NCBI GenBank assembly: GCA_024679065.1
Contig: JAGIQG010000011.1
Location: 55,552,001 to 55,616,000, forward strand
DNA from: Sphyrna mokarran
Lineage: Eukaryota
Direction of reading: 5' to 3'
DNA: 64,000 bases
Part shown: positions 16,789 to 56,789 of the stretch, piece after piece
Position numbering within the stretch: the stretch's first letter is position 1
Layout of the letters: every line of letters begins with the position of its first letter
Position numbers and translations under genes: made by a program
The notes under the pieces: generated by a model
What the model saw: the letters and a program-made list of their open reading frames with translations, nothing else
What the model was told of the DNA's origin: nothing
Database searches by the model: none

Positions 16789-17003
16789 CTGTGTTACTTT
16801 TTCTGTCACGTTGTGTGTCCTTTCCTTCACTTTCGGTGCAATGATGGTCTTCTCTGATGAAGGTGGGGATGAGCTCTTCTTTTCAGCTTTTATATCAGAA
16901 AAGTTCAGGGTGATTTGAGGAATCTTGCTAATTGTGTTATATTTGTTGAGATTAGAATCAGATGTGGAGCCCAGTAGGCTTGACTTGATGTGATTAAAGG
17001 GTC
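16789..17003 (-). CDS. KCNH7: KCNH7 coding exon ending just before the S1-containing exon (human exon 6 equivalent)
   Basis: Translation [72 protein letters not shown] is the ERG-family signature. Acceptor ttttctccAG at 17004-17005 and donor CAG|GTaaga at 16787-16788. Length 215 nt, phase 1 to phase 0. Confidence 0.96.
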
Positions 17004-21782: not shown

Positions 21783-22639
21783 TTGATGACTGACTCACTT
21801 AGTTTAATATTTTGAGGCGGTCACTAGCATGGTAGTTAGGGGAATTTCAATGAATTTGTCAACATGAGCTTCCAAAAGACATCTGCTAAGGTTTCCGTAC
21901 AAGAGATTAGAAGGGTGAAGGCACGATCCACTGCTACTCTGCTGCGAACAATGAGGGGGAAGGAGGGGTCCACTGTCACTCTGCCAGTGAGCAGTGAGGG
22001 GGAAGGGGGTTCTGCTGCCCACTCCGCCTTAGATCAGCGGGGAGAAAAGGTGGGTCCCCTGCAACTTTGCCTGAGAGCAGTGAAGGGGAAGGACAGGGGG
22101 ACAAAGGAGACGTTTTTAAGGGAAGTGAGTGTGAAATATTAGATGGTGTAAATGTAGTGAGGGAGGAAATGTTAAGGTATTCTTGAAAATGGAATGAATG
22201 GTATTCGCAGGCTGCTAAAGAAAGCAATGAAAGAAATAACAGCAGCTCTGACCATCATTTTCCAATCCTCTCTTGTTATAGACTCATGTTGGATGTTTGG
22301 AGAATGGCTTTAGCCATACAGGCTGATGATACACTTTCCCTTCACCCACACCTAACCTCTGAAACCCAGGCCCCAACTCTCTCTGGCCTCTCTGGAGGAA
22401 GCTATACACCGGACTTAACTCAGATCTGGGCTCCTCTTTGTCAGTTTGGGCTGTCATTCCCACTGTGGTCACCATTCTTGCCTGGTGCTGCTGCGACTAC
22501 AGAGTTGCTGGCCAATCAGCAACATTTGGGCTGAGATTGGAGCGGAGATCTCACCTTAACATTGCTGCCAGTGTTAAATTGCTGGAGTGCAGTCATCAAT
22601 CATATCGTGGTGGGCAGGCTTGCCACTGGCCTATTATGT

Positions 22640-36452: not shown

Positions 36453-38532
36453 TTTCCTGCAGACTTTACTCATCTATTCCAATATAGTATGAGCATGTGG
36501 ATCCATACAGTTAATGCCAATAAAGTGTGATGATCATTCAACATAGCAATATTGTTCCTCTTTGATATTTTAATCATTTAGCCTTTAAAAAATCCATCTC
36601 TTTTGCTGCAATAAAATGAATGAGAAGCTGATTCCAACGGCAGGAATAATATCCTATTTGAGAAACGATGTATCACATTTAGATCAATTATAGTTTTCAG
36701 CACCTAATCATCAAGGCAAGATACAGTGATCAACAGTGACACAATCACTTCAGCCAACAACGTGATACTGGACACCCTCCTAATGTCAATTCTTCTGTTA
36801 AATCTGTTTAGATTCTACAACCTAGCAGCAAACATTAACAAAAATCTGTCATGTTGTATGTAACAGTTGCATTTTTCAGCAAAAATGAAAGGTTTGTCAC
36901 TTGATCTTTCAAGCTAAAATGCATGTTGTATTTTGAATTCTTAAGTGATTCACTGAGCAAGGTCTTGGTGCGATGTTTCCACAACAATGGCCATTAATTT
37001 ATGTAGACGTCAGAGCCCCTGATCTACAGCACCTAATGCTACCAGATATTTGCTTGCACTTGCTAATATCATTTTGATCTGACAAGTTAATATATCTTCT
37101 TCGCAGCTGGTGGGATAAGCAGAATTTGGAATGGGGATTATAACTGCTGACGCAAAAAGTAAATAAATGTAATTTGATTTGTCCTTTCCTCCAAAAACGC
37201 TGACCCAGTAAACTGTCCACACACTATTACTAATATTTTAAGTTTTGCCAGATAAACATATTAACATAAGTTGAAAAGGTCAAGAGGTTTGACTGATATA
37301 TAGACATCATTTCAGACAATAATGCTGAAAACACAGTGACCAATTTGACTAGGCTACAGTGACTGAAGTTGCTTCCATTTATGCAGCTGTCATGCAGTAA
37401 CAGACTATTCTGCTCATAGAACTGTGGGTCTAAACAGATAAATTCAGTATAACTGTCCGCACAATGATGGGAGGCCACATGGAGGACATTGCTCAGCCAA
37501 ATACGCACAAGCAGGATGTCACTTGTAAAATGTACCAGTAAAAAGATAAAAGGAAGTTAATTATGTTGTAAATAATACTTCATAGTTTACAGTCTAAAGT
37601 TATAAGAACAAATTGCTCTAAAATATTTGAAGGCACATCTATGTTTTGGTTTCTGCTCACAAATGGATGAATGTGCTAAGGTATTACTGTCAAAAAATTG
37701 CAAAGAAAACATCTTTTTTTAAATTATGAAAATAGTTAAGTGAAAAAAACTAGACTCGATGAAATGAAGTATGTGGTCTGGACACATGCATATTATTTCA
37801 AAATTAGAGTAAGCATACCCCCTGCCATCCAGGAATGGGAAACTATTATTAGAAAGAAACACAGAAGGGAAGCTGTAAGAATAGTCTGCTATAAACAAAC
37901 ATTGTAGTAATAACCTATTATGTTTCATCAGTCACATTTTGTAACAGTCTGACCTAGTTATAACACATTGTGAAAATTACAAGGTTCATGTCTCTCTTCA
38001 TCTTTGCCATTCAACAATTGTTTTTATCACAGATTAAACCATTGGGGATTATATTTTGTTTTGAACTTAGTCTCATTTTTGTTTTTCAAGGAGATCTTGT
38101 TAACCTAAACTACCCAATGGAAGGACTCAGATCAACTGTCTGTTTTGCAGTCCACTCTATTCTATAATGAAAAATACAGTTGGGCAGGGTGTCAAACAGA
38201 TGGCTGGCTAATCCGATCCATTCAATTTCCCAGTAGATACATCAGATTTAAATTACCCCCGGTGTTTGCAATGCTAGCATTGAAATTCTCCCATATTTCA
38301 AGCACCAGAGACAGCAAGTTATTGCTGGGGCTCACCACAAAGGTCCATATCAGTATATACTAGTAAATATAACAGCCTGTTTCCTTACCATCAGTCTACC
38401 AGATGCCGGGAAACAGATCCATTAACATTGAATTTATCTCTTTTTAAAATAAATCTCAGGATGTGGACAAGATCTGTACTACTTGTCCATACATAGTTGC
38501 TTGTGAGAAGGTGTTGGTGGACCTACTTTAGT

Positions 38533-38800: not shown

Positions 38801-40424
38801 CCAAATTTGTCTCCCATCAGCTTCTTTAGGCAAACAGTGACTTTTTTTGAGGTATAGTTCCAATCTTCAGCTATCTCACTTGATTTGCCATTCTGCATAT
38901 ATAAACCTGGTGAATGAGTCTTAGCAGTCTTAACTCAATGGAACTTGAAATGACTCTCCCTCGATATTCACACTCAAACTCTCTGACTGATGACAATGAG
39001 TAATGATTGGAGCGGGAACAGTAAACATTATATCTGTCCACAAAAGGGCTCATAAAGAGGCAAAATAATGGAAAATACTGCATTTTTTGCCTGTCTTTAA
39101 AAGTAAATTATGAATTTAATATTGAATTTTACCTCTGTATAAGCAAAGGGGCAAATTATACATTTATGTTCTGATATTAGTCAGGATGTTAGTGAAAGAC
39201 TTAACGCAGGTAATTATTACTAATAAGGAGCTGGAAGTATCAGGTACCAATTCTATAAACTGCATTATGAAAGTAAATATATTTCTTAACTGAATAATTA
39301 CAGGTTTGAGTTATGATGCATTTGCTGTGGTCTTAATATGCTTAAGCTGTTGCACACCTGAAACAATCAACATATCAAAGACCAGTTTATTATATGGTAC
39401 ATAAAATTAGAGAGCGTGTAGAAATACAAAAGACAATCAAGGACTGCCAATAGAGTTTTGTTGGAATCAGTCATCATTTTTAAATGTGCTTTTTAAGAAA
39501 TAGTCGACTGACTTATAAGTAGTCGTTTTGTAACGTTGAAAGAAAACGTTTACCACAAACATTTAAAAAAGGCACAATGTAATTTTGTAAACATTCCTTC
39601 TGGTATGCTGTTCTCAAGATTTCTTCTGGAGATGGGGAATTAGAATGCAGCTTTCTACATCCTTTTGGTTGTAATTTTATATTCTCTTCATACTAAACCA
39701 AAATTCTCAAATTTATCTGTGTGATCTCAGTGTCACATTTTAAGTTAGCAATTACTGATTGATTTACAACAATCAACAATTTGCTAGAACATTCCTCCTT
39801 TTTAAGTCATCTTTTCAATTACATACATGATTTATTTTCTTTGTACTATTGGCAGTGATACTAAAAATGTTAACCTAAATTTTTATTGCAAGATAACACT
39901 GAACAGTCAAAATTCCTTTCTCTACTATTAACTGTTCAGTATAAACAGGCTGTGGACAACTTTTTTGAAAACATGCACAGAGGAATTTCAAGTAAGTAGC
40001 TGTATATTAATATCTTGTGTTACAATCTCAGACTATAGATGTAGGGATTTTGAAACATTTATGCTTATATCTGTGACTGCAAATATACTAAATTTTGCCT
40101 GGTTAATTGACTTTGCTTTAAATCAATAATGACCAGAATGATTTGCCATTAAACAAATCAGGGTTCATTACCCTGATATCGATTTCAAATTGCAATGCTT
40201 TGTATATCGCATCCTAGAAAAAATGGACTCTTCTACAAGGAGAAATAATGTATATTCAATTCATACAATAACTGATAAAAGTCCAAAGTAGTATAAATTG
40301 TCAAACAGTCTTAAACCAGTCTCATCTATCTGGCACTGGCCAAATTTTTCTGATCTTGCAGCGACAAATTTACTCCAGTCTATAAACGAGCAGATTAATG
40401 TATTGAACATCGGTTAAATAAGAG

Positions 40425-40517
40425 CATGCAAGTTTAGTTGAAAATATTACCTTTAATATTTCGTCCGTTGTCTACGTTGCACCACAGCGACAAGTAAGAA
40501 AAAAGAGACAAGAAAGG
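40425..40517 (-). promoter_or_regulatory. Splicing-regulatory context of the microexon: displaced polypyrimidine tract, UGC near the 3' splice site, downstream UGCAUG
   Basis: On the minus strand the pyrimidine tract lies at about -20 to -46 (40491-40517), TGC at -10 to -8 (40479-40481) and TGCATG at +21 to +26 after the donor (40425-40430). Confidence 0.6.
40451..40471 (-). CDS. KCNH7: KCNH7 21-nt microexon encoding (D)NGRNIK
   Basis: Minus strand reads caacgtAG|ACAACGGACGAAATATTAAAG|GTaata. Splicing it in frame between the flanking exons gives RHASE-DNGRNIK-GPFNH, matching the recalled mammalian ERG3 sequence RHASEDNGRNVKGPFNH. Confidence 0.93.
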
Positions 40518-40939
40518 TACTAAATGCTAAACTGTAAATTTGAAAACGGAATCATTTTACTTCAGAGTGTAAGTGCTCAGTCTTATAAATACACCATCTC
40601 TCACTATCAGGACCTCCATTATGGGGCTATACAGCCTTTGGGTCTGAACCTTTAATGATACATTTTCTGGTATTTCATGCAGCATGCATTCAAAGGGAAC
40701 CTCACGATAAGTTGCAATAAGCTTTTGCAGAACATACCTCATCACAGCATGTGAGATAGTTGCTTTTCAAAGGTTGAGTGATAATGAGAATGAAGAGGTG
40801 CTGCGAAGAATGATAAAAAGAACCAGGGGTTTTAATATACCCATTAGATTCATACACAGTTCTGGTGGCTGGTTTCAGATGTACATGAAAGACTGCTGAT
40901 GAATGGGAGGATATTTTAAGCTTTAGTCTTAAAAAAGTT

Positions 40940-41050
40940 AGATTTTCCCACACCACCACTGTTGTCTTGCTGCTGGGGAATCCGCTGCGGGGGTTCACTT
41001 CGGCAGAACTGGAATATCCTGGCGGTGGGAAGGACTGGAAAATCCTGTCC
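40940..41050. mobile_element. Partial MITE (family of 28940-29130, inverted)
   Basis: ttcggcagaactggaatatcctggcgg...actggaaaatcctgtcc terminus. Confidence 0.6.
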
Positions 41051-41786
41051 AAAGTTAGTTTTCCAGTTGAGACCTATAATATCTGCTACACTTAAAATGG
41101 CAGAGACTCATAACACTAATTAAATAAATGCTCAAGTGGGGAAAAACTGCGACAGACTTGAACCATTACTGTGAGCAGGATTATCTGGCCTTGCCTGACA
41201 CCAGTATTGTCCAATCCCACAGAAAGTCAATGAACATTTGGCTGGGCCACCTCGTTGCCCATGGTGGGTCTCACTACAGCAGGGCTGGAAGATCCCAACC
41301 TGTATATTAATATTCTTTTGTTTATGTCTAAGAATGCTTGTAATGATATTGAGGAAAAAATTCAGTTTACATAATAATATAACTGAGGTGGCCATTTTAC
41401 TAATAACTACAACCAGAATTTTACATGATACCAAGCTTCAATGATGTGTATTGCAGTAGAGGGTAATGTTTCAAAGACAAAAGTTATCTCAGCCTGGAAG
41501 ACAGTAATGGACATTTTTCTCAATAACTTTTCAGATTTTCTGCTGATGACTTTTGAAGGTAAATGCAAATATAAAAATATTCTTCTTGCAGCAAAACATG
41601 AATTCCAAAGCATCTTCACCTTAGAAAAAGAAATCCCAACAAACTTAATTCACCAAGATAAAAATAAAGAGTGCTGAATGGACTGTTCATTACTGGGATG
41701 TATCTGCAGGATCATAGCTTACCCGCACTGCTTAAAGCACTACTTAAAGGCAAAGTGTATTGTGGCTGGAACAGGTCCTGGAAGTC

Positions 41787-42034
41787 ATGGCTGAAGGAAA
41801 TTTGACACTCCAGACAAGAGCACTGGATCAAAAGTTTTCAGATACTATACTGGAGGTCTTAGTGGAAGAGTTGAAAAGGAGGAGCAATGTCCAGTTGTCA
41901 CAGGGGCAAGGAGGCCCTCCAGATATATTATCAAATGCGAGTGGGTGCTTGTGTCATAGAGTTCAAAGCTAGGAGTCAAGCCCCGAGGACCTAGGTGCAG
42001 TGGTACAAGAAGTTCAATTATCTCATCCAAGTGT
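41787..42034 (+). pseudogene. Relic of a PIF/Harbinger-associated Myb/SANT-like DNA-binding protein gene
   Basis: RALDQKFSDTILEVLVEELKRRSNV, then with frameshifts RRPSRYIIKCEWVLV...RSQAPRT*VQWYKKFNYL. This fits the Myb/SANT-like pattern F.....L..LV.......W..........R...Q..KK...L and contains stops. Confidence 0.75.
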
Positions 42035-42329
42035 TTATGTCCTGCCCCTGTGTGCTCCTTGCCAGTACTTGTGAAATTGCACAGAGCACTGTTAAATCAA
42101 GTGAGAAAAGTCAGCTGTGAAGCACTCTGAGCAATTTCATACAAGTAGTCAAGGTCATTGAATGCATCATCGAATGCCATATCCTACCAACTGCATTCTT
42201 AGCCTCAGCTACAGCTCAAATCAACCTCCCCTCACCACTGCCATGACTTAACTACCAATCTCTTTCAACAGGCTTCATTCCAAACAATCATATGGTTCAC
42301 ATTGCCCTCTCACACTTGGGGTGGAAGAG

Positions 42330-43100
42330 TGTTGATCAGGGGTGAAGAGCTGTGCAAAACGAGTCGGTTTCACATTAACATTTCTCACTTGATTTAACAG
42401 CATTCTATGCAATTTTAAAGTGGTGACGAGTATCACATAGCGGCAGGGCATAAACATATTGGCAATGCAGGAAATCTGAGATTGGGGTGCTATTTTTGAA
42501 GATGTATAATTAAAGAACACCCTCACCCCCACAATAGACATCTGCGTCACCCTACAGATATCACCCCACCCCAGTGGATAAGGGGAATATCCTCCCTTCT
42601 CCACACACATAGAAGGGACCCTCTTCAATGGCAAATGGTAACCACATATCCCAAAGGACAGTGCCAACTGGCAATACCCCCTGCCTGTGCACCCTAGCAT
42701 AATGCCAGGGGGTAAAGTTAGGGTCTACAGGCATCTTCGCGCCTCCGGTTTGATTATCATTGGTTTTTACTTTTGAAAAGCACTAGTGATTTGAGCTNNN
42801 NNNNNNNNNNNNNNNNNNNNNNNNNNNNNNNNNNNNNNNNNNNNNNNNNNNNNNNNNNNNNNNNNNNNNNNNNNNNNNNNNNNNNNNNNNNNNNNNNNNN
42901 NNNNNNNNNNNNNNNNNNNNNNNNNNNCCATGGCGGGGGTGTTGGGTGGTATTTTGGTATTTCTGGGTGCTCCTGGGTGTGAATCTGATCATGTCACCAG
43001 CAGGGAGGCAGGAGGTGGGGATGATCTTAAACTGAGATCCTACCAGTGCAAATCCCATTCCAGGATTTGTGGCTGTGGCTAAGGGGGCTGCTAAATTGCA
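42330..43100. mobile_element. TIR-element remnant spanning the assembly gap
   Basis: GGGGTGAAG start, ggca/tgcc-rich interior like sister elements and a GCTAAATTGCAGC end. Continuity across the gap cannot be verified. Confidence 0.4.
42798..42927. other. Assembly gap (130 N)
   Basis: Run of n characters. Confidence 1.
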
Positions 43101-43104
43101 GCTT

Positions 43105-43672
43105 TCGTATTAGAATAGAACAGATCAAAGTGTTGCTTCAGCTATATAAAAGCCTGGTCAGATCTCACCTGGAATACTGTGAAAAATTTACCATGACTTA
43201 AGGACTTTGACTCCAAATATCATTCTGATAAATCCAGTTTGTACTTGGAACAATTACAGGTTGGATTTATTAGAATGATATCTGCACTCAAAGTGTTAAA
43301 TTACAAGGCAAGATTCTTAAAATCCAGGATTGTATTCACTGAAATGTAGAAGGCTAAATGTGACATGATCAACATATTAAAGGAAACTGCTGGTTGGATG
43401 GGGAGAAACTATTTCAGCTAAATGTCAATCGTTTAGGAATGAAATTAGAAAAAGCCTCTAACTGTAATTACTGCTAAAAGTTTGGAACTCTGCAGCAGTT
43501 GATGCTAATGTTAATTTTAAAACCGCAACTTACAAATTTTTGTTAATCAAGGATATTAATGTATATGGAGCACAGGCAGGTATATGGAATTAGTTTGCAG
43601 ATCAACCACAATTTTATTGAATAGAACAGGCGTGGGGGCTAAATGGCTTACTCTTCTTCCTATGTTCATATG
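43105..43672 (+). mobile_element. Decayed CR1 3' portion
   Basis: Encodes LQLYKSLVRSHLEYC, with the tail ttattgaatagaacaggcgtgggggctaaatggcttactcttcttcctatgttc. Confidence 0.85.
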
Positions 43673-43799
43673 CTGCAAGACACCTTTCAAAGACTGCATA
43701 TCTGCCAACCATTCAATTCTGACAGTCGTATCAGCCGAATGCACAATCGCTTTGGCCCAATTCTTCTGATCAGTGTTGAAATTGTTGCATCTAAGGCTA

Positions 43800-44675
43800 A
43801 TCTGACCCAAAACTACCCACTTACAAGAGCTTTAAAAAGGCCAGACTCCCGATCTGCAATGCAGAACTCCCTCAGTGCAGGAATCCATGCAGAAAGCAGC
43901 AATGAGAATCTACACAAAAGCCATGCTCTTCTTTTCATGGCACTATCAGCTGTAAGGTAAGTTTAAATGTCCATTGTGAATTTAATGATTGGGTAATGAA
44001 TGAATGCTAGTGAACAGATAAATGAATGAATGAGGGAATATGTTGTGTGGTGAGATGGATGCAGTCAGTGGGCAAGTGGATCGTGTTAGCATAGTAAGAT
44101 GGCAGGTGGATAGGTGGTAGGGTGGCATGTGGGTAGAGTAGGGGGTAGCATTGCAGGTGGGTTGGGGAGGTAGGGGATTATTTGTGGGGGCAGGGCTGCA
44201 GGTGGGCAGTGTGGTTAGTGGCCAGGATGGCAGATGGGTTAGGTGGATAAGCGGTTTGGGAAATAGTTGGATCAGGTCCAGTCAGGATGTAGGCAGGTTG
44301 GTGGCTAATCAGGTCAGGCTGGGAAGGAGAGTCGGAGTGGGTTGGGTCCAGTGTGGGTGTTGAAGGTTGGTCATGGGGCTAGCTAGGCAGTCATTGTGAA
44401 TGATTGCAGGGTCACTTGTATAGTTACCCAGGAATTAGACTAGGATTTTTTGACTTAACATTTCCAGGGTAATTATTTAGATAAGTTTGTTGGAACTATT
44501 CAAACTCTATCTCAGAGCTAGAGACTTCTTCAGAGGGTCCTGGGGAGCAGATGGTTCAAGTTTCTCAGACAATTCCCTGAGAGTCTGAGAGTTGGGACAT
44601 CTGCAGGATTCTAACCAGCATCTTGCATTGTATGTCAGGACTCCAGTGATCCAAAGACTGGAAGATCTGGGCCTT
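43800..44675. mobile_element. Old non-autonomous TIR element with a G-rich low-complexity core (44040-44390)
   Basis: GGAAGATCTGGGCC terminus and a GT-rich interior like other elements here. Confidence 0.45.
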
Positions 44676-44909
44676 TATTTCCCAGCTGCATCTGCCAGTT
44701 CAGGGGACAGGTCGGCTGGAACCCTGCAAGCCCCTTTGCACATGATGGTAGCAAGCAGATATTGCATGACAGCAAACAGAACTCTTGCTGCTCTTCAAAC
44801 ATTTTGATTCACTCCACATCATATCTTAAAATGGCTCAATGCATTGGATACAGCAATTGGCCCTGTCAACATCAACTGTAGTGCTGAAGACTTGTGCTCC
44901 AGGACTAGT

Positions 44910-45130
44910 CAGAATTCGTATAGAGCAGAAAGAGGCCATTCAGCTCACTGAGTCTGCACCAACCCTCTGAAAGAGCACTCCCTCACCCTATCCTTGCACA
45001 TTGATCACGGCCAATTCATTTAACCTGCACACCTTTGGACTGTGGAAGGAAACTGCAGCATCCGGAGGAAACCTGCACAGAAATGGGGAGAATGTGCAAA
45101 TTCCACACAGCCAGTCACCCAAGGTGGGAA
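44910..45130 (-). mobile_element. HE1-type V-SINE (5' truncated)
   Basis: ctttggactgtggaaggaaactgcagcatccggaggaaacc...gagaatgtgcaaattccacacag is the reverse complement of the V-domain. Confidence 0.85.
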
Positions 45131-45139
45131 CAAAATGGA

Positions 45140-46080
45140 ACATTTTCTACTGATTGGAATCTTACCTAGCACAAAAGAAGATGGTTGTGATTGTTAGAAG
45201 TCAATTATTTTAGTCCCAGGACATCACTGCAAGAGTTCCTCAGGACTTCCCAAGCTTCATCATCTTCAGCTTCTTCATCAAAACCTTGCCTCCAACAAAG
45301 CCCAGAATAGGGATGCTCTCTGATGATTGCACAGTGTTCAGCTTCATTTGCAACTCCTCAAACTCTGCATTCGGCAAGACCTGGCTAACATTCAGGTTTG
45401 AGCTGAGAGTTGGCAAATAACATTTGCATCACATAAGTGCCAGGCAGTGCCATCCCCAATCAGAGAAAATCTCCCCCTTTCTCCTCAACATTCAATGGCA
45501 TTACCATCCTTGAATATCCCATTGTCAATGTTCTGCAGTTACCATTGACTCGAAACTAAACTGGACCAACCATTATGAACAATGTGGCGAAAGCTGCGTG
45601 TCAGAGGCTAGGAATTCTGCAGCAAGTAACTCACCTAACTCTCCAAATCCTGTCTACCATCTGCAAGGCACTGATCAGGACTGTGATAGAACACTGGCCA
45701 CTTGCCCGGTTGAGTTGCCAGATCAACAAAATTCAAGAGGCCCAACATCCTCCAATACAAAGCCCACTTGATCTGCAGCCCAGTCCTCACCTTAAAAATG
45801 AATTCCCTCCACTACTGACACACAGCAGCAGTCTATATCATTTGTAAGACATACTACAGTAACTCACCAAAACTCCTCCAACAATATCCTCCAACCTGTG
45901 ACCACCTAGAATGGCAAAGGCAACAGCTGCATGGGAACTCCCATTGTGGGAGCACTGCAAGGATACCTACACCACATGGACTGCAGCAGTTGAAGAAGGC
46001 CATGGCATGTTTTCAAGGGTAGTTAGGGGTGGGCACCACATGCTGGCCATGCCAGCTGTGGTCACATCCCATGGATGAAT
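45140..46080 (+). mobile_element. CR1-like LINE (second subfamily), RT to 3' end
   Basis: Encodes SYLAQKKMVVIV...DITARVPQ, MLSDDCTVF and WTNHYEQC, with the tail tttcaagggtagttaggggtgggca...tgctggcc. Confidence 0.85.
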
Positions 46081-47885
46081 GTTGTCTGTTAGCGAACCAG
46101 CCCGAGCTGATTTTGCCTGTGTGTGAGATGGTGCAGAGGCAACTTGGGAGAAATACAATCAAAAGCACAAAGCAGATAGATTCAAAGTAAGAAATCAACC
46201 AGCACCTAAGTAAGTGGCTGATGATTTCTTCAAATAAAGCTGCAAGTAGGGGTGTTCATTCTGCTGTAAATTTGTTTTTGTTGTGGAAGTTGAGAGAGGA
46301 CATTGGCTGAAATGTAGCTCCAAATGGTACCACTGACATCAGATCACTGTGATTGATGTCAGGACCTGCCTTTTCTGCACACTTTCAGTGGATGTTCACT
46401 TTGCCCACGTGAGTTAATGTCTGCACCCAATTGCATCAGACACAATTTGCCCCACAAATGTACGTAAGTGCTGCAGGTGCCTTTTGGAGCTTTGTCAGTG
46501 CTCAGAGCATCTAATAAAATGGTGCCAATGAGACTAATTTCTCACTCAAGGGTTTAGTACAGAATCCTAAGGAGTAGAGCTGACTTACCATCAAAGGTTA
46601 GCAAATCAGCAATGGGTAGCTGAGGGTATGGAAGGGGATATATAGGTGGACAAAGGTGTAGCGATAATGGTGGATGAAATCACAGACAGACTTGAAGATG
46701 AAAATGAATGTTTTACATACAATATTTAGCATGACTGGGAATATGGAACCAGGAGGCACCTGAAGGGTTCCGTTCCAAAATATTACTGGCCCCCTCTCAG
46801 CACTCCCAGACTGCTTCCTCCTCACATTGCTTCTACTCCTGATCAATCTCTATCCCTTGTAGAATCTACCTGAGGACTGCCACCAAAATGGAGACTGGCC
46901 CAACTTTGTCCATATGGATCTTCCTCTGGACACCCAATGGCATTCCCAGCTCACCAGTAATATGCTGATGAGATCCAATATCCACGTTCCAGTGAGACCT
47001 GGGCTTTTGATATCAGGTTTGCATTCTCAAAAGTGTTGCTTATTTCAGGTTCAATTGCAGTCAATATCATTTTCATCCATCAAGTCTAAAGATGACAACA
47101 ATGTGGATAAGGCTTTGGCAGCTTTAGACTAAGGTAGTCTCACATGGAGTGAAATATTATACAGCTGTAATATTGATGGATTTGTTGAGTGAGATACAAA
47201 AGGGCCATTATTCTATGATTCTATCTATTTTAACTAATCCTATATATACTTTCATTTTCTATGTTTACTGGGCTGCCTCTGGTAAAGGGTGACTAAATAT
47301 ATAAGGAGGTTCACTCACCCTGAATATAGTGATTGTCTGACACATCATGCCTAAAGATGCTGTTAAGAGTGACTCATCCTACATCAATTGACTCCCCTTA
47401 GTAATTCACAAATGGCTATTTATAATGACTCAACCGACATTTGACTCATTGTACGAAAGGCCATAACTACTGACTCATTTTCTATATAGAGACCATCTAT
47501 AGGGCTCAACTCTCTTCAGGGTATATGTTTTATAGTTTTCTCTGCAATAGAAGACCACCAATTGCGAATATTCTCTATACAATACAACGGTCCATGTGTA
47601 CAAAGGGTTTGCCTAATTTTAATCACCAAAAGAGGCACAATGACTCACTGGGCATAACTGTAGGGAACTGGGGAAATACCATCTTTTTCATAGACAATTC
47701 CATTTGTTGTCCATTCCCCAGAAGGCACTGGGAAATGTATATTGAAAATCAGGATTTGTGGACTGAATGATTAAAACTTATTAACCTTGTGATTAAATCA
47801 TTTGCAAGTCCACATTTTCTGAAGTAATAACATGTAAAATCTAAACTCATAGAAAACATGCTTTGTAAAGCAGTGAGATGCCTAC

Positions 47886-48320
47886 CTTCACTTGCATGTC
47901 GATCCCTAAATATAATCCGAGAGTTAACATGGTATCCTTCAATGTCATGGGCGGAAGAGGCTCTTCTCATACTGCACACACTTTCTCTTGACTGACTGTA
48001 CGTTAGACCAGAGGTAGACTGCAATGTGTCTGGATTCAGTCCATCCCAATGTCGCTTTGGTGAAGAATGATCCAGGGGTCCTGGCAAATTTACAAATGGC
48101 GGAGAACTATCTGGCTCTGTCAATGCTTTAGTGTCTTCGAACTCAGAAGGGCCACAGCTTTCGCTTGTGGGGGATTTCAAGTCTTTCATGGCCAAAGAAT
48201 CATCGCTTACTTGAGATGGCTCCACTACAACCGCATCTGGGTCCTCTTGAGGAAGAGATTGTTTGCTAGATGTAAGAAGTCTTATTGCAGGCAGCTTTAG
48301 TCTGAAAAATCTTCCTCGGC
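47886..48320 (-). CDS. KCNH7: KCNH7 (ERG3/Kv11.3) internal coding exon, proximal N-terminal cytoplasmic region (human exon 4 equivalent, numbering from memory)
   Basis: Translation (G)[32 protein letters not shown]...[13 protein letters not shown]...[19 protein letters not shown]...FRDRHASE matches the recalled ERG3 motifs [24 protein letters not shown] and RDRHASE. Minus-strand acceptor tttactgtAG at 48321-48322 and donor GAAG|GTaggc at 47884-47885. Length 435 nt, phase 1 at both ends. Confidence 0.95.
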
Positions 48321-48847
48321 CTACAGTAAATGAAGTAAATGAACATGAACAATAAATACTAATCATTTGTTTACTCAGACTAAAATACCCAATAACAAGA
48401 ACATACAGGAAACAAAAGCAGACATTGACAATAGCAAACACATGCCAGATCTCTCCATCTGCTGCTACATTTAAAACAGAAATTCTGTTCCTTGACAGTG
48501 GGCTGATATGTTAATTGCTCACAATTAACAAGATGCACAAACTACTAAATTGCAATCTGATCAACTTTGAAATATTCATAAATGTTTCATTGATATGCCA
48601 GGAAAAGGATTCAAGAGTTGTGTGTGCATTGAAGAACATTTTTGAGCAAAAAGAACAATTTTGATTATAGATGGCATTTTAAATATACACATGATTTTGT
48701 CATCATTTTCTGAACAAAGGAGATGACAAATACAGGGAACAAATCATACTGTGGACACTAGAATAAATTAAGAAAATAACAGAGACTACGTATTATCATG
48801 CACAAGCTTGAGACCATTCCTATCCTGCCAGATTTCATATACACAAT

Positions 48848-52858: not shown

Positions 52859-55800
52859 ACATTTTATCACCGCATAGTGGATTTTTTTGTGGCAAAATTT
52901 ATTTGAACTTTTTCTTCACTAAGTAAATTGTAGGCTATCTATCTGCAATTCGGTTTCTGAGTCAGAGTTAACAATTGTTTACAATTTCAAAAAAAAATCT
53001 TCCTCCCAGTACACGTTGACTTTCTTCTTCCCCCAATTTTGTCAGATCTCCTAGGAACACCTTCAGTTCTCCTCCAAATCAGGCTGCCACTTTTCTCCTT
53101 CTTCTGTTTAAGGTGATACGTTTTTCTTTCGCCACCCTAGTGTGTGTCATCTTCTACTTCTCTTTCTCAGCTGAAGCTGGCATTCTTCTATCCTTTCTCC
53201 TTTCAGTTCACATCAAACTCCTTCTCTCCTTCCCTACAGTTTACATTTTATTAAACTCCCACTGCATTTAATTTCAAAAGTCTTCTTTTCCTCTCTTCCT
53301 CCCTGTTGTCCTCATTGTTCTTATCATTTGCTGCTGATCAAATGAAACAGACTCAGTCGTTCACTTGAAGTGGGAGTGCTTAATTTCACAAGGCTGGAGA
53401 AATTCTCACTCATCCCTTGCCCCACACCCACCTCTCCACCACTTCAGGTGATGAAGTTTATTTCATCCTTTATTGCTGGTTGATGGGTCACTGTTATCCT
53501 ACACAGTTACTGTCATTCACCTTCAGTTTCAGTACGCACTAAAGTTCAGGCCCTAAGTTAAGTGACAGAAGCACAATTTAAGAGCTGGGCTTGGAACAAT
53601 GGCTTGATGGGTGACCTCTATGAAGTTCAGCAATTGAAGTTCACTGTTTGAATTTTGGCTGCAAACACTGACACGTAGACACCAGGTCCAAAACACTGTC
53701 TCTTCATGTAAAACACGTAGATAAGGAGGGCGTCATCTACACAGTGCTGACAGTACATATCTGATAGCATTTGACATTCTTGGCCAACCTCCTTTGATTC
53801 TACCCATCCTCATCTATTATGCCTAGTGGCAGTGGAGTACTGAAAGGAATCCCCATCACTGAGTACCATCTGCCAGCAAAAAATGATTGACAGTGTGGCT
53901 GTAAATTTTCGATTCCCAATCCACATGAACTTGGCCAGGTTTGACCACTCATTTCCCATGGGTAATGATTAGCACATTGTACATGTGGGAATGAGCACAA
54001 CAGCTTTGCAAAAATCCCTCTACAATAATGACCAGCTTTGCATGGGAATAACCTCAACACAGTTTGAATGCTGAAGCACATTGCTCACTGAAAAGTCACG
54101 CAGCATTTTTATAGCAGGCGCGAAATGCAGAAACTTAAACTGCTAATTTTTCACATCCCACCTACACAATTGCTGTTGGTACAAAGCAGCACTTCCTATA
54201 CTTACATCTGAGTTTTCAAATAGAAGCATAGATTTTATACTCTTATTACTGCATGGAATTACAATACATGTTACATTTTATAAGATAATCAACTTAATGC
54301 AATTTAAATTAGGAACTAAATATCCTGATGTTTGAAACTAATTGATCAAATATTTTTATAAAAATAAAACTGAAATTCACATTGTTGATATGAAAGATAA
54401 CACTTCAACATTAATAACCTTCTAATTTATTCTGCATTTTTGTAGGATTTTCCTATATCTTTTAGATGGGCTTTCGGAATGGTATAACCCACCAATTACA
54501 CAGATTGTACATATTTAGTTTTGACAGTTTATAAGAGAGCGATTTGTTTTTATGTTATAAATAATACATACCATCTTACTGATTAAACATAAAATATTAT
54601 TTTTCCCCCTGACCCCTTGTATGTACACATGGTCCCTTCTACTTCACTGCCTTAATATGAACATGCTAAAGTCTATTACTGATTCCATTGTCTGAGGGCC
54701 ACTCAGCTGGAAATGAAACATGAATTTCCTCTGCTTTGACAGCTGCACAATATATGAAGAAACAATATGTGGCATATTCAAGGAATGAATGCACTTCAAA
54801 GCAAGCAATCATCTTCCCCTGATGTGTTAACATTTTACAGGACTCAGTCAGGCTGAAATAGATTCCAATCTGCAAATTCAAATCATTGTGGAGGTTGGCT
54901 GCAACCACATTTACACTGACATCATTTGTTCCTGACCAGCTGCTTTGGTGGGGAAACCCTTCCTTTGTCAAGCTTGATTTCCCAGGAGAAAGGGGCTTAT
55001 ACACAGTTAGGCCCAACAGTGACAGGCAAATAATTGAACATTTGGATATGTATATATAAAGTGACACTATGATTATTTATAGGAAGTGAAGCAATTAAAA
55101 AGACTGGCAATTGAAGTGCTACTTGTCTTTGAACAACTGACTCCATTGCAATTTATTCTTACAGCCCAAGTTACACACAAAAAACACAACTGTTGTACAT
55201 TTCTCCATGTTGTACCCCTTTATTCAATTTTTAAAGGCAGCTTTGCGTTTTGAAAATATTTCACAGATGATAGATTTGTTGCAAACAGCACAAGATAAAC
55301 CTTTGACATTTTGGAAGCAGTAGAAAATAAAGGAGTTCAATATTAAAGCTCAGAACAGTACAATGGGAGGATTTAGACTGTGCTTACTGATCTTGCATTG
55401 GGTGCCAATGATGGAAATATTCAGAAAGTGAAGTACCGGTACCCCTCACTTTAATAAGTATTCATCAAAAATATACATTTGAATTGTTCAGAGGAAGCAG
55501 GGTATCAGATGCCGTTTTGATGGAAATTTTTTAAATGGAAATCTTGGGGCTCCTAGACAGAAAATGGTTGATTTGTATTTGTACATAAATGTTTCTAAAA
55601 ATAGTAACTGCTGCTTATTAAATAGTCTGCCATCTGTTCCAATTAGAGCAGGAATGTTGTACAAATAATCATTGAATATGAAATTCCTGTCAGCGTCTAG
55701 AAAGATCTAGCTGCACCATACAATAAAACTTAAATACAGAACATATCAGGACTGACAGCGGTGAACTTTACCTGCAGAAGTGTCACTGGAGATAGGATTG

Positions 55801-56789
55801 CCATCTGAAATACAATTGAACTACATTTGTTGAAAGCAGCATGGTTAGTGAAAATTCAAGAACAGTAACATGTAGCAAGATATATACTGATCAAAGACAT
55901 TTTGTTCTATTAACCTTGACAAATGTTTAAGGCTCGTAAAGTACCTTGTGAATCCATAATCATTTCTCTTCAGCCGTAAGATTCATCCTATTATTGCATC
56001 AAATAGAGATAATTTTTACTTACCTTTTCAACTGACCTCCACCAAGCAACTCTGACCACTCCTCTGGCCTTCCAGTGTTGCACAACGTTATAGATGTTTA
56101 CATTTTTGCCACACAAAGAGCTATGAAGTATGTACATTGGGGAAACATAGATAAACGAGATTCTGGCCACAACCAGGAATCAAAGCTCATTTCTTTCACT
56201 GCTATGATACTCCTGTAGTAAGGAAGCTCTCAAAACTCTTATGCAGACACAAATATAATCACTAAAATAGCCAGGAGACTCTGAACCTGTGACTTGTGTG
56301 ACATTGAAGGTGGATTCTCCAGCATTGTAGTACAGGACTGTCATCCACAATGGCTCTAAATCTTGAAAAGAACCTTGGGGAGTTTTTGTCTTCTTATCAG
56401 CTGGACTGGGCATGTTTGCTCCTACAGGCGACCTGGATCGACTGGGTCATGTTATTCATTGTAATCCATTATTCCATGTGGAGAGGCTTGTTTGTACATA
56501 GAGCTGAATCTCTCCCCTTTTTCAGTGTTAGAACTTCCAATGAGACTGTCCTTATCAAGTGTAAAAGAAAGATGTGCAATCCCAGAAAATCACTTATCAG
56601 TTCTGACAAAATTGTTTCTCTTAAAGGATTATATCCTTTAAAAATAAGTTTGTGCAAATTCAGCTTGATTTTTCTTTTTAGGTAACATTTTGCAGCTGTG
56701 TTGAGAAATTCATCCTATTCTTTGGCAAAATTATTTTGAAAGATTGATTTGAATTTGAGGATCATTTTCTGTGGATTTCTGCTTTCTGT

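Follow-up and report, generated by a model that had tools for sequence, protein, structure and literature searches.

The vertebrate neural microexon programme comprises exons of 3–27 nt, which are SRRM3/4-dependent and RBFOX-enhanced. A displaced pyrimidine tract combined with a UGC is described as a mark of SRRM3/4 targets, and the regulation by these factors, including its dose response, as conserved from shark to mammals (10.1101/2024.09.17.613571). The hexamer TGCATG is reported to be enriched downstream of alternatively spliced micro-exons, where bound RBFOX enhances the inclusion, and few pyrimidines adjacent to the AG together with a displaced tract are given as the layout of alternative, and not of constitutive, micro-exons (PMC4317164). 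The second relevant system is KCNH7, the gene of ERG3, which is reported to shape neuronal resonance (PMC7839749). Its public isoforms contain or omit two small exons at one junction, called here ME1 and ME2: human XP_016860708 carries ME1, human XP_016860710 carries both, and macaque XP_028686603 carries neither. The isoform sets of gar and shark in RefSeq are of the same kind. Presumably, two curated human KCNH7 isoforms differ by seven residues.

The window analysed here, which is the whole 64,000-nt stretch of Sphyrna mokarran DNA, contains a pair of exons that does not differ in kind from these sets. The gene, the junction and the in and out forms are the same, and the peptides are within one residue of the public ones. 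The ME1 peptide reads DNGRNIK against human DNGRNVK (6/7 identical) and the ME2 peptide VSHSWMAG against VSRSWMAG (7/8); identity to human is 92/142 for the upstream flanking exon and 63/72 for the downstream one. An earlier note on this DNA had given DNGRNVK as the mammalian peptide, and XP_016860708 indeed contains it. With the neural microexon programme the pair shares the size (21 and 24 nt), the canonical AG/GT bounds, the preservation of the frame and the conservation from shark to human. ME1 also shares the UGC and the displaced pyrimidine tract, and both exons share the downstream TGCATG, whereas ME2 differs in being without the UGC. ME1 is a conserved microexon of an ordinary and familiar class, already known to the databases, and one of a pair. 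The reading preferred here, with a probability of about 60%, is that neurons likely turn on two optional jawed-vertebrate microexons, which in turn likely tune the activation or regulation of KCNH7.

The flanking exons belong to KCNH7, and not to KCNH2 or KCNH6, as the upstream exon shares 86–99% identity with 16 proteins of sharks and rays that are named KCNH7 (99% with that of Mustelus asterias and 86–97% with the others). The downstream exon matches residues 310–375 of hERG (E 1e-20). The features of the locus are collected in the table. At the 48320 acceptor region, some shark models open the 435-nt exon with RRGRFF and others with RKFF, which suggests a nearby alternative acceptor or a difference in annotation.

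Table. Exons and candidate splicing signals of the KCNH7 locus in the window
Feature	Positions	Strand	Length (nt)	Phase	Details
ME0	55772..55804	minus	33	1-1	cassette exon upstream of the 435-nt exon; bounds CAG / GTAAAG; tblastn
Upstream constitutive exon	47886..48320	minus	435		ends in RDRHASE
ME1 acceptor region	40472..40519	minus			46-nt AG-free zone; pyrimidine tract about 40515-40496; TGC at 40481-40479 (-10)
ME1	40451..40471	minus	21	1-1	cassette microexon; DNGRNIK
TGCATG (RBFOX motif)	40425..40430	minus			predicted site, 21 nt downstream of ME1
ME2	37819..37842	minus	24	1-1	cassette microexon; VSHSWMAG
TGCATG (RBFOX motif)	37785..37790	minus			predicted site, 29 nt downstream of ME2
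Downstream constitutive exon	16789..17003	minus	215		starts with GPFNH, ends in EKVTQ

On the minus strand of the window, TAG stands directly before ME1 and GTAATA directly after it. Spliced between the upstream exon, whose donor follows 47886, and the downstream exon, whose acceptor precedes 17003, its inclusion reads RHASE-DNGRNIK-GPFNH; when it is left out, the junction reads RHASE-GPFNH and the frame is kept. The exon and the in-frame skip junction described in the earlier note are therefore both found in the window. Such AG/GT bounds are no proof by themselves: in the 30,882 nt that separate the constitutive exons there are 81 AG-21nt-GT candidates free of stops, and eight of these also have YAG and G|GTR. 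Only ME1 among these eight spells the conserved peptide, and a chance AG/GT match is ruled out by this peptide together with the acceptor layout, a combination unique to ME1. A DNA search of the shark's own genome assembly with the 181 nt around ME1 returned a single match, which is ME1 itself. A stretch of N at 42798–42927 makes the letters of the intron upstream of ME1 unreadable there. ME1 is confirmed as a genuine frame-preserving cassette microexon of KCNH7, and its existence and conservation are near certain.

ME2 was missed in the earlier reading of the window, as was ME0. It lies between TAG and GTATGC, and a search for its peptide motif in six frames gives this single match in the window. 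The exon divides a 23,447-nt stretch into 2,608 and 20,815 nt. The intron lengths given in the earlier note, 7,414 and 23,447 nt, are thus arithmetically right, but the second one describes a single intron only if ME2 is skipped.

The distribution of the pair was followed in 190 KCNH7 proteins, consisting of the best 120 of 518 matches and 70 cluster members. At the junction after RHASE, 79 of them have ME1 alone, 49 neither exon, 48 both and seven ME2 alone, with seven uninformative; the models are predictions from shared annotation pipelines, so these counts are not independent, and not all isoforms are among those listed. All four forms of the pair are hence present in annotated vertebrate proteins, all four being annotated in gar and three in dragonet. 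The ME1 peptide occurs at the same position in 127 of the 190 listed proteins, and its carriers include sharks, rays, chimaera, coelacanth, bichir, gar, axolotl, reptiles, birds, monotremes and placentals, human among them. In teleosts it was found in two lineages, dragonets and smelt. The ME2 peptide is present in 55 of the 190, and 53 of these 55 copies read VSRSWMAG.

Among the matches listed, 47 models are chondrichthyan, and these comprise 29 with ME1, four with ME1 and ME2, and 14 with neither. By a hand tally of names, models of 19 of the 23 chondrichthyan species listed contain ME1; both the in and the out form occur in seven, and four were seen only as the skip form. The earlier note considered ME1 hidden and easily missed by shark annotation, an idea excluded by its presence in 33 of the 47 chondrichthyan models. 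The exon more often missing from shark models, through either loss or a gap in annotation, is ME2, found in four of the 47 models and two of the 23 species among the matches listed; bony vertebrates have it commonly (51 of 143 non-chondrichthyan proteins listed). The inclusion of ME2 is known from annotated proteins only. ME1 and its skip form are already in the public protein records for many vertebrates, and since shark and mammalian records both contain ME1, little is gained here as an annotation finding.

The occurrence of ME1 from sharks to bony fish and tetrapods supports its being ancestral to jawed vertebrates. The comparison of chondrichthyan, teleost and tetrapod orthologues proposed in the earlier note finds the peptide in all three groups, as well as in gar, bichir and coelacanth, in agreement with the ancestral cassette that the note envisaged. 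No lamprey or hagfish protein is present among the nine named representatives of 142 matches.

The splicing of the exons can be followed in assembled contigs, which come from related organisms other than this shark and from runs guessed to be RNA, with the tissue not recorded; contig letters and window exons were compared by eye. Six of the 21 listed runs were aligned. On the upstream exon, three of four runs (X1, X2 and X4) gave one contig each, all leaving the genomic sequence at the splice sites of this exon, and X5 gave none. The X1 contig (9,688 nt, depth 22.5), identical to the upstream exon in 436 of 442 letters (6 differences), joins 47886 straight to 17003 with 29/30 downstream-exon letters matching, and thus skips both microexons. 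Its opposite end includes ME0 (26/27 loose letters match). The X4 contig (340 nt, depth 4.3; 293/314 identical, 21 differences) continues past the donor with 19/21 letters of ME1 and then 4/5 letters of the downstream exon, a form with ME1 and without ME2. The inclusion junction is weak, with 26 letters on the short side, under the bar of 31, and of its two differences from the window one would create a stop in frame, probably a mistake where the contig ends. In the X2 contig, the letters beyond the 48320 acceptor do not resemble ME0, which is therefore skipped. None of the contigs aligned to the flanking exon in runs X1, X2 and X4 includes ME2. Contigs of X1, X2, X3 and X8 on 39500–48600 leave ME1 uncovered, which carries no weight, the 21-nt piece being probably too short to align. 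Hundreds of contigs of the same four runs match a high-copy repeat of the intron at about 44,700–46,200.

ME1 is therefore seen in both states in spliced contigs, with strong skipping in X1 and weak inclusion in X4. Together with both forms annotated in seven chondrichthyan species, these junctions bear out the cassette status proposed earlier. As ME1 is the commonest annotated form, it may still be included nearly by default wherever KCNH7 is expressed, and not act as a neural switch. In this alternative, which we regard as improbable, ME1 is a near-constitutive small exon, the peptide is a part of the normal protein, and skipping reflects occasional mis-splicing or errors in the models. Its presence in 127 of the 190 listed models agrees with such a view. 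Mouse 'exon 6' would presumably correspond to the 215-nt downstream exon, with ME1 numbered as exon 5. The size of this 'exon 6' in a mouse knockout comes to about 0.21 kb (0.8 kb minus 360 and 232 bp; PMC7839749), a further point in favour of near-constitutive inclusion. However, the best-covered contig, X1, skips ME1 cleanly, both forms exist in the seven chondrichthyan species, gar and dragonet, and the layout of the ME1 acceptor is that described for alternative micro-exons (PMC4317164).

This layout is pronounced. Starting 44 nt upstream of ME1, 19 of 20 letters are pyrimidines, and only eight of 17 are pyrimidines beside the AG. The combination of a UGC with a distant pyrimidine tract is found at ME1, with the TGC inside the AG-free zone. 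By acceptor and motif criteria set post hoc, after the ME1 sequence had been seen, two of the 994 YAG sites in the span have an acceptor of this type, ME1 being one of them. The other, at 22070, was rejected, having no nearby GT donor that yields a small exon. For ME2, the TGC is absent from the last 40 nt before the exon, as it also is in about a quarter of the known SRRM3/4 targets described (10.1101/2024.09.17.613571). Predicted RBFOX sites follow both microexons, against a background in which 2.0% of the span positions have a TGCATG within 40 nt, and no such motif lies within 300 nt downstream of ME0 or of the two constitutive exons. Two more copies are located at 40688–40676 on the minus strand, 217 and 210 nt upstream of ME1. 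A cluster of YCAY after ME2 (five in 100 nt) was not counted, as it occurs in 6.7% of windows.

The acceptor of ME1, which is of the SRRM3/4 type, and the RBFOX motif after each of the two exons make neural inclusion of ME1 and ME2 likely. Under the preferred reading of neuronal microexons that tune the channel, SRRM3/4 would act at the ME1 acceptor through the TGC, the displaced tract and the AG-free zone. RBFOX bound 21–29 nt downstream would promote the inclusion of both exons.

In the protein, the pair adds 0, 7, 8 or 15 residues to the N-terminal linker. ME1 starts at residue 300 of a KCNH7 protein (P0001), about 110 residues before S1. The sequence RDRHAS directly before ME1 fits the RxRxxS consensus of basophilic kinases, which makes its serine a putative site. 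An insert placed directly after RDRHASE would alter both the sequence beside this serine and the length of the linker. The expected effect is a modest, neuron-biased modulation of activation or of regulation by kinases or partners, with no new fold. The link to ERG gating is drawn by analogy from the work on hERG, in which the proximal domain (135–397) is reported to regulate activation, its deletion altering activation; the same review terms this domain erg1-exclusive (PMC7174612). An AlphaFold2 model, built from a 75-row alignment for a bichir KCNH7 that carries ME1 and ME2, has pLDDT below 50 at residues 135–417. Most of its transmembrane part is also below 50 (mean 41.7), so the model is no proof of linker disorder.

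Alternatively, the exons could be regulated while their peptides have no effect on gating, serving trafficking, partner binding or subunit assembly, or acting too weakly to be measured; we consider this unlikely as well. The insertion site does lie in a long linker deleted from the hERG cryo-EM constructs (5VA2, 7CN0), in which the chains pass directly from the PAS domain to the later linker and the insert region is missing, and by its title one study finds that removing microexons has minimal impact in zebrafish (PMC12626420). Yet the near-invariance of the peptides across jawed vertebrates (53 of the 55 ME2 copies identical) argues for a sequence-specific role, and the effect of proximal-domain deletion in hERG (PMC7174612) also speaks against the absence of a gating effect.

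The origin of the pair can be approached through the paralogs. The intron that precedes the (N/G)STSDS exon is in phase 1 in KCNH2 (hERG) and KCNH6, as it is in KCNH7, and a KCNH6-like gene elsewhere in the same assembly uses the same phase-1 acceptor at the equivalent junction. The paralog set comprised the best 120 of 1,101 matches to this KCNH6-like exon, mostly KCNH2 or KCNH6 by name, some of them fragments without the upstream exon. Neither peptide was found at the junction among these 120 matches, and the lone motif match among them lies at residue 874 of one protein. Such a distribution makes the pair look KCNH7-specific, and its birth in this gene probably falls between the ERG duplications and the split of sharks from bony fish.

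Some bird models of KCNH2 have an optional 9-residue insert of their own at this junction, which is unrelated to ME1 and ME2. It resembles the end of the preceding exon (P0245, P0275 and P0281 compared with P0255, P0280 and P0283). Three ray KCNH6 models (P0196–P0198) have a longer insert at the equivalent junction. The KCNH6-like exon is present twice in the assembly, on contigs C794 and C849 (L003, L004), with identical printed flanks, possibly as a haplotype duplication; the search that found it returned no KCNH2 exon.

The third cassette, ME0, is seen in chondrichthyan (sharks, rays and chimaera), bird, turtle and lizard models among those listed. No mammalian model among those listed has its peptide, so the exon was possibly lost in mammals. 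A broader and only tentative extension of the preferred reading would join the three cassettes of 33, 21 and 24 nt into a module as old as the jawed vertebrates, with ME1 under SRRM3/4 and RBFOX and ME2 under RBFOX. Its four ERG3 linkers would give distinct gating or kinase responses by neuron type, and ME0 would have been lost in mammals.

In the KCNH7 literature searched, apparently no paper treats these exons, and no functional comparison of the four ERG3 linker forms was found; subscription papers, bioRxiv supplements and VastDB-type tables may list them. Supplements were examined for four papers on microexons or SRRM factors and two related ones. No KCNH7 row is present in the searched supplements of PMC12626424 (12 files), PMC12626420 (12 of 13), PMC9303857 (12 of 18), PMC12868881 (one file) and PMC4317164 (four of five). 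The searched supplements of PMC7935315 (12 of 19 files) contain gene-level expression rows of KCNH7 and no exon row.

The N-terminal linker of ERG3 can take four forms, which are conserved from sharks to humans, and the role of each of these forms is the question that can now be tested. Physiology obtained from one cDNA may describe only one form of the linker.
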